64,000 bases of DNA, from contig CACOBG010000007.1 in NCBI GenBank assembly GCA_902625415.1, positions 6,757-70,756 of the forward strand, in the 5' to 3' direction. The notes beneath the pieces are model-generated. The model saw only the letters and a program-made list of their open reading frames with translations, ran no database searches and was not told the DNA's origin. Shown here in pieces: positions 1 to 6,429 of the stretch. The first letter of the stretch is position 1, and the number at the start of each line of letters is the position of its first letter. Source of the DNA: an uncultured SAR86 cluster bacterium (lineage in GTDB: Bacteria; Pseudomonadota; Gammaproteobacteria; Magnimaribacterales; AG-339-G14). The position numbers and the translations under genes were made by a program.

Positions 1-164
1 CAACAAATTCTTATCCACCAACGAAAGAAAGCAACCCAGGAAAGAATAATTCTCTGTCTGAATTTTCTATCAATAAATATACAGGCAGGAAAGGTTAAAG
101 AAATGATGATCAAAGAAATTCCTAAAATCACATAAAAAAGAAAAGACCTTACATACGAAATCAT
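1..164 (-). CDS. plsC: Lysophospholipid (1-acyl-sn-glycerol-3-phosphate) acyltransferase, N-terminal part; runs off the window edge
   Basis: Hand translation MISYVRSFLFYVILGISLIIISLTFPACIFIDRKFRQRIILSWVAFFRWWIRIC...; ATGA overlap with the gmhB stop; gmhB-plsC is the usual order. The catalytic motif lies outside the window. Confidence 0.65.
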   Translation of the reverse strand, partial: MISYVRSFLFYVILGISLIIISLTFPACIFIDRKFRQRIILSWVAFFRWWIRIC

Positions 165-700
165 TGGCAGATAAATTTTGTTGCTGACAATAGATTTTCA
201 AAAACTCGAGCTTGAGAAGTATCATGATTTTTCAGCGTTATCTCTCCATAGCCTGTTTTAACCAATAAAGGTTTGCATTCATGTGCGAGAGCACACTGAA
301 CATCAGAAAATTTATCTCCAACAAAATAACTACCTTTAAGATCAATGCCCAGTGCCTTCTCTGCTCGGAGTAAAAGTCCGGTTTTTGGTTTTCTGCATTC
401 ACAATCATCTTCAGGTCTATGGGGACAAACTTCCACATGAAAAATATCAGATCCGTGTTCTTTAACTTTTTGTTTCATGTGAGAGTTGACTTTATCTATT
501 TGATCTTTAGAAGCCATGCCGAGACTAATACAAGCCTGATTTGTAGCAACTATAATTTTAAAATTATTGTCGGATAATAAAGATAATGCTTCTAGGCTCC
601 CATCCTCGAATTTAAAATTTGCTGGCTTTGTAACATAATCAAATAGATCCACGTTAATAACGCCGTCTCTATCAAGAATAATGTAACTCTGGTTTGACAT
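161..700 (-). CDS. gmhB: D-glycero-D-manno-heptose 1,7-bisphosphate phosphatase (HAD)
   Basis: LDRDGVIN HAD motif I, ATNQ, Zn motif CPH..CECRKP, VGDKFSD. Confidence 0.93.
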   Translation of the reverse strand: MSNQSYIILDRDGVINVDLFDYVTKPANFKFEDGSLEALSLLSDNNFKIIVATNQACISLGMASKDQIDKVNSHMKQKVKEHGSDIFHVEVCPHRPEDDCECRKPKTGLLLRAEKALGIDLKGSYFVGDKFSDVQCALAHECKPLLVKTGYGEITLKNHDTSQARVFENLLSATKFICQ

Positions 701-702
701 TC

Positions 703-2064
703 TTAACCCTTAAATAGCTTTAGAATGCTTTTCTCTATATCGCTTAAGTCGATTACTTCCTGCTCCATAGTATCTCTATCTCTAAAAGTAACTTTGTTCT
801 TTTCTATGGTGTCATAGTCAACTGTTATACAAATTGGGGTGCCAATTTCATCATGTTTGCGATAACTTTTTCCTATATTTCCAGTATTTTCAACCAAAAC
901 TCTTCCAATATTTAGCTTTAAAAGCCTGTTTTTTATTTCTAATGAAGCTCTTACTATTGCATCTACGTTCTTTTTAAGGGGAATTACAGCTACTTTTACA
1001 GGAGATAGGTGCTTTTTCAAAGACAATACTACTCTTTTCGTATCATTTTCAAGGCTTTCTTCTTTATATGCATCATTTAGAATAGCTAAAAATGCCCTTT
1101 CGACTCCAGCACTTGGCTCAATAACATAGGGTACAAGCCATTTATTTGATATTTTATCTTGGAAAGCAAGTTTTGCTTTTGAAGCTTTATTTTCCTTAGT
1201 TTTAGCTTGTATGTTGAATTCCTCTTGAGACTTAGTATGAGAGCCTAAATCAAAATCCGTTCTATTCGCAATGCCCTCCAGCTCTTCTGTTCCATGAGGA
1301 AATTTATACATAATATCAGCCGTTGCCTTGGAGTAATGGGATAATTCCTCTTTGGGGACATTGAAAATCTCTAAATTTTCTTCGTTTAGGCCCTGATCTA
1401 ACCACCATTTCATTCTTTCTTTAATCCAATATTCATGAAATTTCTCATCGTCTTTAGGCTCTACAAAATACTCCATTTCCATTTGCTCAAACTCTCTTTT
1501 TCTGAAGATAAAATTCCTAGCTGTTATTTCATTTCTAAACGCTTTACCAATTTGGGCAATTCCAAAAGGTAGTGTTCTAGAAGTGCTGTCTAAAACATTC
1601 TTAAAATTAATAAAAATATGTTGAGCTGTTTCAGGACGAAGATAGGCAATGGAAGAGCCATCGTCTACAGGCCCGATATTTGTTTTAAACATCAGATTGA
1701 AATCTCTAGGCTCTGTTAAATTTGTTGACCCACAATTTGGACACTTCATTCCATCTAAAGTATCTGCTCGCATTCTGAATTTACAATCTTTGCAATCAAT
1801 TAAAGGATCAGTGAAAGTGTCTTCATGACCTGACTGAGCAAAGATATTTTGGCTGCCCAAAATTGAAGAATCCAAACCCTCTATATCATCTCTTTGGTAA
1901 ATCATAGATTCCCACCAAGCTCTCTTAATGTTGTTGGCAAGTTCAACGCCTAGCGGTCCATAATCATAGACGCCCTGCATTCCTCCATATATCTCTGCGG
2001 TTTGAAAAATAAAACCCCTTCTCTTACAAAGAGAAACAATTTTATCCATTTTATTTTCAGCCAT
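703..2064 (-). CDS. glyQS: Glycine--tRNA ligase, alpha2 homodimeric type
   Basis: [36 protein letters not shown]-terminal anticodon-binding domain; 453 aa single chain. Confidence 0.95.
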
Positions 2065-2093
2065 GCTTGTATCTTATTAGAAGTAAGTACTTA

Positions 2094-3545
2094 CTATTCT
2101 TTCCAAAAGAATGCTGTAAATAATACCAACAAAGTATAAATTTCTAATCTTCCAAGTATCATTACAAAAGCCAAAAGAACCTTCGTAAACGCATCCATTC
2201 CTGCGTAATTATAAGCTACTTCACCAAGTCCTGGACCTAAATTATTTAGACATGCTGCTATTGCAGAAAAAGCAGTTTCTGTATCTATCCCCTGCCCCAT
2301 TAGAATAAAAGATCCAACTAAAAAAGTAAGCAGGTAAACTGTTAAAAATCCCCAAACTGAATCAGCAACTTCACTGTTGATTTTCTTTTTTCCAATTTTT
2401 AAAGGCAAGACAAGATTTGGGTGTATAAGTTTTTTAAGCTCTCTTCTAGCGTGATTCAAAAGCACCAAACCTCTTATCGCTTTAAATCCTCCAGCAGTTG
2501 ATCCCGCACAAGCTCCTATCATGCCAATAAAAATTAGTAGTTGAGGGAGGTAAGTCGGAAATGCAGTATGATCCAGAACGGTAAACCCTGTAGTTGTCGC
2601 AAACGAAGTAACGGTAAATAGGGAAGATACAATTAGATTAAAAGAAATCTCAGAGCTGCTAAACCAGATAGATATTAAGAATACTACAAAAGCAAGAAAA
2701 AGCATTTTCCAATAAAACCCGAATTCAGGATCTTTTACATAGTTGAATAATTTAAAATTTGAAAAAGAAAGATAATGCAGAGAAAAACTTATGCCTGAAA
2801 TGAACATAAAAACAACAGCCAAAATATAAATTGTGTTGTTGTTGAAGAAGGCAAAACTCTCGTTGTGATTAGAAAAACCCCCAATTGCAATCGTTGTAAA
2901 AGAGTGAACTACCGCGTCGAAATATCCCATGCCGGCTATAAAATATGAGATGAAACAAAGGAAGGTAAGAATAAGATATATGTACACCAAAACCATAGCG
3001 GTTTCAGCTATTTTCGGCCTTAACTTGCTTTGATTTATAGGTCCTTGCGTTTCGCCCCTATATAGCTGCATTCCACCAACCCCCAATAGAGGCATCAAGG
3101 CAATGGCTAATACAATAATACCAAGACCACCTATCCATTGGAGCAAGCCTCTATAAAACAGAATAGAGTAATATTCTCCGGATAGGTCAGAAAATATCGT
3201 TGCACCTGTAGTTGTTAAGCCAGAAGTTGCTTCAAAGTAAGCACTTACTATAGATAAATCGCTATTATTACCTAATATTAAGGGTAAAGTTGCGAAAATG
3301 GTAAAGAATAACCAAAGCAGAACGGTTAACAAAAAACCCTCTTTAACTCTTATCCCGTCATATTTTTTTTCAAAATTAACCAAATAAAGAAATGAGCCAA
3401 ATGCAAGGGTAATCATGAAGGAATAGGCAAAAGCTATAATATTATCTTCGTTATAGATAATTGAAACTATAATTGGCGTTAGCTGTAAAAAAGAAAAGGC
3501 GATCAAACCTATTCCCAAAACCCTAGAAATTAATCTAAACTTCAT
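2094..3545 (-). CDS. trkH: Trk potassium uptake membrane protein
   Basis: SGLTTTGAT, TIAIGGFS, TTTGF, GSTAGGFK, NNLGPG pore-loop motifs. Confidence 0.95.
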   Translation of the reverse strand: MKFRLISRVLGIGLIAFSFLQLTPIIVSIIYNEDNIIAFAYSFMITLAFGSFLYLVNFEKKYDGIRVKEGFLLTVLLWLFFTIFATLPLILGNNSDLSIVSAYFEATSGLTTTGATIFSDLSGEYYSILFYRGLLQWIGGLGIIVLAIALMPLLGVGGMQLYRGETQGPINQSKLRPKIAETAMVLVYIYLILTFLCFISYFIAGMGYFDAVVHSFTTIAIGGFSNHNESFAFFNNNTIYILAVVFMFISGISFSLHYLSFSNFKLFNYVKDPEFGFYWKMLFLAFVVFLISIWFSSSEISFNLIVSSLFTVTSFATTTGFTVLDHTAFPTYLPQLLIFIGMIGACAGSTAGGFKAIRGLVLLNHARRELKKLIHPNLVLPLKIGKKKINSEVADSVWGFLTVYLLTFLVGSFILMGQGIDTETAFSAIAACLNNLGPGLGEVAYNYAGMDAFTKVLLAFVMILGRLEIYTLLVLFTAFFWKE

Positions 3546-3576: not shown

Positions 3577-4941
3577 TTAACTCATTAAACTTGTTTCTAG
3601 CGCCGGGAATAATTTTTTATCAGACAAGAAAATAATTATATGGTCATTTTCATGTATTTTAACGTCATGATGAGCTATTTTCACTTCTTTTCCTCGAATT
3701 ACGGCACTTATTGTACATCCGTTTGGTAGTTTTATATCGTCTATTCCCTGACCAATTATCTTTGGAGTTATTTCAGGGCTTGCTATTAGCTCTAATGCTT
3801 CAGATTTACCTCTTTTAAAGGTATGAGCCCTTTCAATTTTTGCTTTTGTAATATTTTGCAAAACAACACCAATAGTAATTTCATTTGGCACTACAGTAAT
3901 GTCAACTTCTCCTTGATGTATTAGATCTAGAAAAGATTGTTTATTCATCAAAGAGAGTACCTTTTTCGCTCCAAGTTTTTTTGCCAACAATGACGACATT
4001 ACATTTGCCTCGTCACTGTCAGTTACCGAACAAAACATATCAATCGATTCAATACCTTCTTCTATCAGTAAGTCTTCTTCTGTGGCATCACCATTAAGCA
4101 CAAGAGCAGAATCTAAAGTTTCAGATAAGTAATCTCCTCTCTTTTTACTTTTTTCTATAATCTTTACAACGCTAAATTTATCTTCAAGTATTTTTGCGAG
4201 CCTTCTTCCAATCTTTCCACCACCTGCAATCATTATGTTTTTATATTTAGAATCTCTCGGTCTTATCTCTGACATTACTTTTTTAATATTTCCTTTAGCA
4301 GATATAAAGAATACTTCATCACCATCTTTTATATAGTCTTCTCCGCTCGGAATAATAATTTCTTCTTCTCTGTAAATAGCTGCAACTCTAGTATCTGCAT
4401 TAGGGATATGCTCTCTTAATTCGGAAACTTTATGGCCTGTTATGGGAGCGCCTTCTACGGCTTTTACACTAACCATTGAAGCTCTTCCATCACCAAAATC
4501 TAAAACTTGAAGTGCTCCGGGGAGTTGTACCAGTTTTGAAATGTATTCAGTAATGAGAGTTTCTGGCGAAATTAAAACATCTATTGAGTATTCCCCATTT
4601 TCAAAAATCTGACTACCCTTACCTTTAAGATATTCTCTTGCTCGAATCCGAGCCATAGTTTTAGTTTTTTTATTAAGATGTTTAATCATCTGACAAGCAA
4701 CTAAATTGACCTCGTCTCTTTCGGTCATTGCAATAGCAAGTTCTGTATCTTGAATGTTGGCGTCTTCAAGAGTTTGTGGATAGCAACAATTTCCACAAAC
4801 AATTTTTATATCGTGTTGTTCTGATTCTTTTTCGAGTTTTTCTTCGTTAAGATCGACGAGGGTTATGCTGTGACCATCTTCAGATAGAATTTCGGTTAAT
4901 TCTGATCCAACTTGGCCTGCACCTAAAATTAAGATGTTCAA
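3577..4941 (-). CDS. trkA: Trk potassium uptake NAD-binding subunit
   Basis: Two RCK domains (GAGQVG, GGGKIG); adjacent to trkH. Confidence 0.95.
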   Translation of the reverse strand: MNILILGAGQVGSELTEILSEDGHSITLVDLNEEKLEKESEQHDIKIVCGNCCYPQTLEDANIQDTELAIAMTERDEVNLVACQMIKHLNKKTKTMARIRAREYLKGKGSQIFENGEYSIDVLISPETLITEYISKLVQLPGALQVLDFGDGRASMVSVKAVEGAPITGHKVSELREHIPNADTRVAAIYREEEIIIPSGEDYIKDGDEVFFISAKGNIKKVMSEIRPRDSKYKNIMIAGGGKIGRRLAKILEDKFSVVKIIEKSKKRGDYLSETLDSALVLNGDATEEDLLIEEGIESIDMFCSVTDSDEANVMSSLLAKKLGAKKVLSLMNKQSFLDLIHQGEVDITVVPNEITIGVVLQNITKAKIERAHTFKRGKSEALELIASPEITPKIIGQGIDDIKLPNGCTISAVIRGKEVKIAHHDVKIHENDHIIIFLSDKKLFPALETSLMS

Positions 4942-4999
4942 TTATTACTCCAATAAAAATTATACTCTCAGAAGAATAATATTGTGAACTTGATTATCA

Positions 5000-5932
5000 C
5001 TATTTAAAGCTTTCATCGGAGTTAAAAAAATCTTTTGATCCATTGTAGAAACTTCTGTATTCCATTCGTTTTTTATTCTGTCTAGCTAGCTCTTTAATTT
5101 CTACACACTGATCTATTCCAGAAACTAAAAATTCTTTTTTATCAGCCTTTATAACTTTTCCGGGATCCGAAGCGGGCAGGGCATATACTTTTGCACGGTG
5201 AAAAATAATTCTTTCATTTTTATATTCTGAAAAGGCACAAGGATTAGGACAAAGACCGTTAATTTTGCCAACTATTTCTTTCGCTGATTTTGTCCAATCT
5301 ATTCTAGCTTCGTCTTTAGTTACTTTAGGAGCATAAGAAGATTCATTTTCATTTTGTTCTGTAAGTGAAAAATTATTTTCCTCAATAGAATCAATAACAT
5401 GTAGTATATTTCTAGATGAAATATCGCTCATAATTTCCTCTAAATCTTCAGTATTCGTTCCTTCCTCAATAGGAAATTTTATGCTGTTTACAATTGGACC
5501 CGTATCGAGACCGGCATCCATTTTCATAAATGTAATCCCTGTTTCTCGGTCGCAGTTAATTATGCTTCTTTGAATTGGAGCTGCACCTCTGTACTTAGGT
5601 AATAAAGATGTGTGAATGTTAAAGCTTCCATGTTTTGCCACGTTCAAAAGATCTTCACTAATGATGTGTCCAAAAGCAAAGACAAGAAGAAGATCAATAT
5701 TAAGTTTTTCCAAGGTAGGTCTGAACTTTCTATCTTTGATTTCATCGTAAGAAAAAATTTTAATTTTTTTCTCTTCTGCAAAAACTCTGATTGGACTTTT
5801 AACAAATTTTAAACCTCTGCCCGAACGCTTTTCTTCTGCACAAATCACTCCAACCAAATCGTGTTTGGACTCATAGATGGTTTCAAGAGTTTCAAGGGCA
5901 ATCTTAGGCGTAGCAGCAAATAAGATATTCAT
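5000..5932 (-). CDS. fmt: Methionyl-tRNA formyltransferase
   Basis: NIHTSLLPKYRGAAPIQ, MDAGLDTGP; coupled to def. Confidence 0.96.
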   Translation of the reverse strand: MNILFAATPKIALETLETIYESKHDLVGVICAEEKRSGRGLKFVKSPIRVFAEEKKIKIFSYDEIKDRKFRPTLEKLNIDLLLVFAFGHIISEDLLNVAKHGSFNIHTSLLPKYRGAAPIQRSIINCDRETGITFMKMDAGLDTGPIVNSIKFPIEEGTNTEDLEEIMSDISSRNILHVIDSIEENNFSLTEQNENESSYAPKVTKDEARIDWTKSAKEIVGKINGLCPNPCAFSEYKNERIIFHRAKVYALPASDPGKVIKADKKEFLVSGIDQCVEIKELARQNKKRMEYRSFYNGSKDFFNSDESFK

Positions 5933-6429
5933 TATTTCTGTTTGACAATTTTATTTCGGATTCTTCTTCTTTTCAGTTCAGAAATATGATCGACGAATAA
6001 TCGGCCGTTGAGGTGATCAAGTTCATGCTGGACAACTTTCGTTAATAGTCCTTCGGGTTTAATTTCTTGTTTTTTTCCGTTTAGATCTTGATAAGAGAGT
6101 TTAATATCTGATGGTCTTGAAATTTTCTCAAAAAAACCCGGGACACTTAAGCAGCCTTCATCGTAATCTTCAGTTTTAGAAGGATCCAAAATTTGGATTG
6201 CAGGATTGACGATTACTAAAGGTTCATTTTTTTCTGGACTGATGTCGATAACAGCTACTTGTTTAGCAACGCCAATTTGAGTAGCTGCCAATCCAATTCC
6301 ATTCACGGAGTGCATGGTTTCGAACATATCATCCGTTAAAGTTTTCAACTCTTCGTCAAAAGTTTCAACAGGTTTTGCTTTAATACGTAAATCTTGATCA
6401 GGAAATTTTAAAATTTTTCTTATTGCCAC
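5932..6429 (-). CDS. def: Peptide deformylase
   Basis: GIGLAATQ, EGCLS, QHELDH. Confidence 0.97.
   Translation of the reverse strand: MAIRKILKFPDQDLRIKAKPVETFDEELKTLTDDMFETMHSVNGIGLAATQIGVAKQVAVIDISPEKNEPLVIVNPAIQILDPSKTEDYDEGCLSVPGFFEKISRPSDIKLSYQDLNGKKQEIKPEGLLTKVVQHELDHLNGRLFVDHISELKRRRIRNKIVKQK

Follow-up and report, generated by a model that had tools for sequence, protein, structure and literature searches.

The window considered here (the whole stretch of 64,000 nucleotides analysed, from the genome of a SAR86 cluster bacterium) carries a single gene for an alpha2-type glycyl-tRNA synthetase (GlyRS) at a place where other Gammaproteobacteria have glyQ and glyS, the genes of the alpha2beta2 enzyme. 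The native GlyQ/GlyS does the same cellular job and is encoded at the same origin-proximal position, upstream of gmhB-plsC, but it is unrelated to the alpha2 GlyRS outside the catalytic core and requires two genes rather than one. How did the one enzyme come to stand where the other is expected, when did this happen, and from where did the gene come? The answer that I hold with considerable confidence is that a Thermus-like alpha2 GlyRS displaced glyQ-glyS in place, in the ancestor of the order to which this bacterium belongs, and that vertical descent has handed it down from then on.

The identity of the gene as an alpha2-type glycine--tRNA ligase is confirmed. Its intact reading frame begins with ATG, and the product contains the class II core of the G/H/P/S/T group of aminoacyl-tRNA synthetases (PF00587, residues 137-330, E 2.3e-13) and, in the same chain, a C-terminal HGTP anticodon-binding domain (PF03129, residues 357-449, E 2.1e-20). 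Two equivalog models are exceeded by a wide margin: NCBIfam NF003211 (glycine--tRNA ligase; 582.4 bits, cut-off 312) and TIGR00389 (449.9 bits, cut-off 243.3). The protein atlas entry reads "glycine--tRNA ligase", and an alignment of 21 GlyRS sequences that includes the window protein has about 80 invariant columns (for example, those of the RPETAQ segment). The closest solved structure is that of Thermus thermophilus GlyRS (1ATI, E 1.2e-168), by homology to which the window protein is predicted to be a homodimer. The gene has a GC content of 0.350 (GC3 0.282), as compared to 0.348 for the genome, and its neighbors are similar. A first-pass annotation, made from the sequence alone, had described a single GlyRS of 453 amino acids and of the alpha2 type directly upstream of gmhB-plsC, and both the profiles and the coordinates of the open reading frames (Table 1) uphold that description.

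Table 1. Position of the GlyRS gene and its neighbors within the window.
Feature	Coordinates	Strand	Basis or remark
Alpha2-type (homodimeric-type) glycine--tRNA ligase, 453 aa, intact	703..2064	(-)	PF00587, PF03129, NF003211, 1ATI
gmhB (D,D-heptose 1,7-bisphosphate phosphatase)	161..700	(-)	2 nt downstream of GlyRS; HAD-IIIA models
plsC, 5' part (1-acyl-sn-glycerol-3-phosphate acyltransferase)	1..164	(-)	Full gene on contig, PF01553
Spacer of 29 nt, trkH stop to GlyRS start	2065..2093	(-)	ORF coordinates, junction sequence
trkH, upstream neighbor in the window's genus	2094..3545	(-)	PF02386
trkA-fmt-def, co-directional with GlyRS-gmhB-plsC; all together an origin-proximal block	3577..6429	(-)	

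The order of genes on the contig is dnaA-dnaN-recF-gyrB (+) / plsC-gmhB-GlyRS-trkH-trkA-fmt-def (-) / purE-tsaC-aroE (+). The product of gmhB falls slightly below the cut-off of NF006506 (173.6 bits, cut-off 178) and lies above the cut-offs of the HAD-IIIA domain models TIGR01662 and TIGR01656. The full plsC gene (L037 6210-6920, minus strand), whose product matches PF01553, shares 4 nt with gmhB and adjoins gyrB. The intervals on either side of the GlyRS gene, to gmhB and to trkH, are too short to contain any remnant of glyQ or glyS. A scan for promoters and terminators gave results at the level of chance (22 promoter-like sites, 22.3 expected), and I therefore draw no inference from it regarding transcription units.

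The place of the gene takes on meaning by comparison with 20 glyQ loci from other Gammaproteobacteria. The order glyQ-glyS-gmhB is found in 14 of them, gmhB and/or plsC directly follow glyS in 17, and in 8 the glyQ-glyS cluster lies beside gyrB/dnaA. The window's gyrB / plsC-gmhB-GlyRS is that same arrangement, and thus the GlyRS gene occupies the ancestral glyQS slot, one gene in place of two. The assertion in the first-pass annotation that the locus is the same is therefore borne out, and so is the saving that it estimated, roughly 1.6 kb, since glyQ and glyS together occupy about 3.0 kb (in locus L057) and the alpha2 gene 1.36 kb. At the upstream side, the map of Pseudomonas suggested that an lpxL-type gene might flank glyQ in other Gammaproteobacteria. 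No such gene was found adjoining glyQ in the 20 sampled loci, and for that reason only the downstream boundary of the slot is claimed.

A comparison of the locus across the clade extends this picture. Thirteen further members of the order, drawn from all four of its families, keep the arrangement trkH-(lipid A acyltransferase)-GlyRS-(gmhB)-(plsC)-gyrB, where parentheses mark genes that are present in some and absent in others. The junction between GlyRS and gmhB, 2 nt here, is tight and is conserved in families f1 and f2 and also in a second order, discussed below.

Families f2, f3, and f4, and one genus of f1, have the acyltransferase gene (PF03279, lpxL-type) between trkH and GlyRS (L184:1551-2414, L187:3899-4768, L191:3956-4810, and L195:3880-4689). 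Genera g2 and g4, like the window's genus, do not have it at this locus. The gene gmhB is gone from the locus in f3, and both gmhB and plsC are gone in f4. These local absences are stepwise secondary losses of envelope-related genes.

Does the cell possess the native enzyme as well? Neither PF02091 (glyQ) nor PF02092 (glyS) finds a match in this genome, a metagenome-assembled genome (MAG) of 1.22 Mb in 25 contigs. Taken alone, this is weak evidence that the alpha2 enzyme is the sole GlyRS, since the MAG is 90.6% complete and lacks tRNA-Gly and tRNA-Asn as well, and glyQ and glyS could lie in the unassembled 10%, with the alpha2 gene an extra copy. Against such an explanation, no match to glyQ over the cut-off was found in 60 other genomes of the order (4 families, 14 genera), amongst them the single-contig genomes G017, G041, G043, G045, G046, and G059, which are 92-97% complete. 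(A match of only 17 bits in G042 is broken by stops.) Furthermore, not one of 300 sampled members of the class has both types of enzyme, and in this genome the native site is occupied. I find the notion of a hidden glyQS scarcely credible, and the alpha2 gene, the sole candidate, appears to be the cell's only glycyl-tRNA synthetase.

The search of this genome and its sister genomes that the annotation had proposed found neither glyQ nor glyS in this genome and no glyQ over the cut-off in the others, in accord with the absence that it had supposed, and it found the alpha2 gene in 59 of the 61 genomes of the order (this one included), at 63-97% identity. All four families carry it, in the same synteny. 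Contamination or a chimeric contig is ruled out as a source of the arrangement, since numerous independently obtained genomes, closed ones included, show it too.

One genome of the same genus, G007, presents a full-length GlyRS match (C2:233914-235269) with 11 in-frame stops and, inside it, a clean sub-match at 92%. The region is probably an indel-rich assembly rather than a pseudogene, because no other GlyRS was seen in G007.

To place the order within its class, I surveyed 300 genomes, sampled evenly across Gammaproteobacteria. glyQ is present in 279, an alpha2 GlyRS over the cut-off in 16, and neither type in five incomplete genomes. (Genomes G097, G174, G318, and G328, flagged as unpublished, were counted only amongst the 279.) Outside the order, related alpha2 genes have displaced glyQS in no fewer than nine families of the class, where they reside at unrelated, lineage-specific loci, so that integration in place is not the rule. 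Four of those families also include a sampled genus that has kept glyQ; in three of them (f82, f108, and f123) the sampled locus reads glyQ-glyS-gmhB, and in the fourth, f147, no gmhB was found after glyS at the sampled locus. All 16 carriers of the alpha2 gene in the class sample have genomes of 2.5 Mb or less, and in all four mixed families the carrier is the one with the smaller genome. The smaller enzyme tracks small genomes, which fits genome reduction.

Two of the surveyed genomes merit description. In G179, of family f123, the alpha2 gene lies elsewhere and the old site (L222, G179:C7:10000-26000) now reads gyrB / plsC, having lost gmhB, glyS, glyQ, and a 430-aa gene, all of which are present in the family-mate G332. 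G166, which bears glyQ, contains an 847-aa frame (C1:1623939-1626260) with partial matches to alpha2 GlyRS below the cut-off (E 3.9e-37 and 2.7e-28) and one TAG inside. This frame is possibly a paralogue resembling GlyRS, or else a copy in decay.

The distribution could in principle be turned around: the alpha2 enzyme would be ancestral in this lineage and the glyQS of other Gammaproteobacteria the incomer. A tree that holds all 35 gammaproteobacterial alpha2 sequences together as one group is indeed not rejected (AU p 0.79). However, glyQ prevails throughout the class sample, within a conserved glyQ-glyS-gmhB-plsC order, and is present even in genera that share families with alpha2 carriers. 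Moreover, the GlyRS subclades disagree with a tree of 39 genomes based on RpoB and RpoC, on which the type of GlyRS must change 8 times, at least 6 of the changes being forced by strongly supported branches. I consider an ancestral alpha2 enzyme to be highly improbable.

From where, then, did the gene come? The phylogeny of alpha2 enzymes was built on a labeled sample taken from at least 599 pattern matches, which contains no Deinococcota. All gammaproteobacterial alpha2 sequences fall within one well-supported clade (SH-aLRT 94-97), as three subclades, and the same clade also holds a subclade of sequences from Chlamydiota, Verrucomicrobiota, Elusimicrobiota, and Holosporaceae/Alphaproteobacteria. 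The representative P0002, with which a homologue search was made, is from Blastocatellia. The gene is of foreign origin, because it falls in a clade that crosses phyla and is discordant with the species tree.

Since the labeled sequences include no Deinococcota, Thermus was compared not by tree but by bit scores against the PDB entry 1ATI: 658 for a gammaproteobacterial member of the clade, 625 for a chlamydial member, 565 for the window protein, and 397 for the next outgroup. These scores place the Thermus GlyRS in or beside this bacterial alpha2 clade. The first-pass annotation had listed eukaryotes, archaea, Bacteroidota, Actinomycetota, and Thermus as the typical holders of the alpha2 type, and of these only the last describes the gene, which is Thermus-like and groups with sequences from the PVC bacteria, Elusimicrobia, and Alphaproteobacteria. 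On this sample, the tree does not separate the relations amongst the subclades. The simplest reading is that the gene entered the class once and then spread amongst its members, and I leave the donor unnamed.

Two observations from outside the class concern members of this same clade. Loci L075 and L076 come from single-cell genomes (G398 and G399, 1.1-1.5 Mb) labeled as Alphaproteobacteria/Pelagibacteraceae, whose alpha2 GlyRS nests with those of the order. No glyQ was seen in them, and between their GyrB and that of this genome the identity is only 48-52%. If the labels are right, this suggests that the GlyRS gene has been exchanged between small-genome marine lineages of different classes. 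The other is a groundwater MAG labeled as Elusimicrobia (G396; L079:942-4398), in which an intact alpha2 GlyRS gene lies, in divergent orientation, across recO from relics of glyQ and glyS. The glyS relic (267 aa) covers model positions 120-319 of 536 and the glyQ relic (164 aa) positions 69-188 of 278; both are internally deleted, they lie within 1.3 kb, and the latter is the sole glyQ match in the genome. The arrangement resembles an unfinished displacement beside the old locus, at a stage when the relics had yet to be lost.

The closest relatives of the window gene belong to the second order mentioned above (family f162, with genomes of 0.9-1.2 Mb), in which 33 of 37 genomes carry the alpha2 gene, directly upstream of their own gmhB-plsC. 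Their GlyRS proteins share 62-68% identity with the window protein, a similarity like that between families of the order. Because the alpha2 gene is present in all four families and in the second order, and has native composition, the swap must be considered ancient and not specific to this genome: it is fully ameliorated, order-wide, and compatible with vertical descent since. The AU test does not reject a GlyRS tree in which the order forms a single group (p 0.62). The first-pass annotation had spoken of a replacement of glyQS by a horizontally acquired gene, and had counted vertical inheritance of the alpha2 type amongst relatives against that reading. Displacement, slot, and foreign origin stand. 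The event is not this genome's own, and the type is indeed inherited by the relatives, in both orders.

Was there one displacement or two? A single event in an ancestor common to both orders is possible. The alternative is two separate events in place, the copy of f162 having been transferred from this order, or the reverse, and having landed again upstream of the recipient's own gmhB-plsC. The GlyRS proteins of the two orders are close but the surrounding genes are distant (GyrB 48-49%, gmhB 30-43%, and plsC 25-30% identical between f162 and this genome), and so a later transfer between the orders may have taken place. Ordinary Gammaproteobacteria have a GyrB more similar to that of this genome than f162 does, and for the most part the gmhB and plsC of f162 are not closer than theirs either. 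The freely built GlyRS tree interleaves the sequences of f162 with those of the order, and the two orders are neighbors but not sisters on the RpoB+RpoC tree, both of which speak for two events. On the other side, the AU test does not reject an RpoB+RpoC tree constrained to group the two orders (p 0.27), and keeping the order monophyletic in the GlyRS tree yields a higher likelihood than does the quick tree built without constraint. Furthermore, the GyrB of f162 sits on a very long branch (too long to place, and for this reason RpoB+RpoC replaced the single-gene GyrB tree), so that its low identity may reflect rate only. On balance, I judge two separate events to be rather doubtful.

The displacement in place may be pictured as follows. 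A bacterial alpha2 gene resembling that of Thermus would have entered an ancestor common to the entire order, and perhaps to the second order too, and would have landed within the glyQS operon or beside it, at the origin-proximal site gyrB / plsC-gmhB-[glyS-glyQ]. There it would have taken over the expression context of the operon for itself and for gmhB-plsC. As a bacterial alpha2 GlyRS it would have charged tRNA-Gly bearing the unchanged bacterial identity set, no co-evolution of the tRNA being called for, and glyQS would then have been deleted. Selection for a smaller gene set may have favored fixation, by virtue of the 1.6 kb or so saved, and vertical inheritance would have followed.

It is conceivable that the gene instead integrated elsewhere near the origin and that streamlining deletions later removed glyQS and brought it up against gmhB, so that the two genes would share a region rather than a site. 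Some 7-8 kb of genes that lie between glyQ and trkH in the larger relatives G332 and G209 are indeed absent here. The further local losses within the order (of lpxL in some genera, gmhB in f3, and gmhB with plsC in f4) fit this course of events, as do the unrelated sites of the alpha2 gene in other lineages. What argues against a secondary position is the conservation of the 2-nt junction between GlyRS and gmhB in f1, f2, and the second order. In addition, were insertion random amongst about 1,200 genes, there would be less than a 1% chance (a post hoc estimate) that any of about 8 acquisitions fell directly upstream of gmhB. Arrival by deletion thus seems to me unlikely, and I retain direct displacement at the slot.

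An incoming synthetase must be able to charge the tRNA that it meets. No tRNA-Gly gene was found in this MAG by ARAGORN, whose search gave 32 tRNAs in the genome (G000), with neither tRNA-Gly nor tRNA-Asn. The cluster of tRNA-Tyr and tRNA-Thr genes ahead of tufB (C2:109991-110264) has a gap of 114 nt that contains no tRNA, and relaxed settings gave no tRNA-Gly there either. The absence is most likely a gap in the assembly, because both tRNA-Gly genes are present, at other positions, in the complete genome of the family-mate G017. Those two, tRNA-Gly(GCC) and tRNA-Gly(UCC), have G1-C72, C2-G71, G3-C70, and the discriminator U73. Along with C35 and C36, these constitute the standard bacterial identity set of tRNA-Gly.

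The alpha2 GlyRS of T. thermophilus is paired with a U73 tRNA-Gly and charges tRNAs with either A73 or U73 (PMC3990555). Since an enzyme of the Thermus type accepts U73, the takeover would have been possible with no change in the tRNA (its substrate being read from the relative G017), and for the same reason the swap would be easy and recurrent. By analogy with the Thermus enzyme, the window protein is predicted to glycylate the tRNA-Gly of its host.

The likeness to Thermus has its limits. The Thermus GlyRS (1ATI, 1B76, and 1GGM) has the same two-domain build, a class II core and an HGTP domain. The two proteins align over their full length, except that the Thermus chain of 505 aa contains a stretch of about 40 residues with no counterpart in the window protein (residue 103 of the query aligns to residue 145 of the chain). 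U73 is common to the tRNA-Gly of Thermus (PMC3990555) and that of the window's host lineage, as read from the relative. Unlike Thermus, the host is a mesophilic, AT-rich marine gammaproteobacterium.

That the type of GlyRS is patchy within Proteobacteria is already published: this and other phyla contain species with either bacGlyRS or arcGlyRS, the two hardly ever occur in one genome, and the smaller GlyRS seems to be favored in reduced genomes (bioRxiv 10.1101/2023.05.29.542759). The counts found here, 279 and 16 with one type or the other and 0 with both out of 300, agree with the mutual exclusivity described there. That study does not include this order, the conserved slot, or repeated spread within a class, and none of the three was found in the literature searched, in which no paper paired "SAR86" with "glycyl-tRNA synthetase".

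A broader proposition is possible, though I would stop short of calling it probable: that one Thermus-like alpha2 clade circulates in small-genome marine Gamma- and Alphaproteobacteria and has brought about at least 6-8 independent displacements of glyQS in a tree of 39 genomes, and that in two orders it sits exactly in the vacated slot. If this is true, then capture of an operon or promoter at the native locus would be a preferred route for the swapping of essential translation genes, and L079 would be a snapshot of the intermediate.

The order described here adds an order-wide, well-documented case to the long-noted and unexplained patchiness of two unrelated types of GlyRS, a case that exhibits the exact ancestral slot and in which the swap would have required no change in the identity of tRNA-Gly. 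There is a practical consequence as well, in that these abundant marine lineages will receive too low a score from annotation pipelines and from sets of essential or marker genes in which glyQ/glyS are expected. The alpha2 clade offers natural material for the study of how essential translation genes are exchanged.
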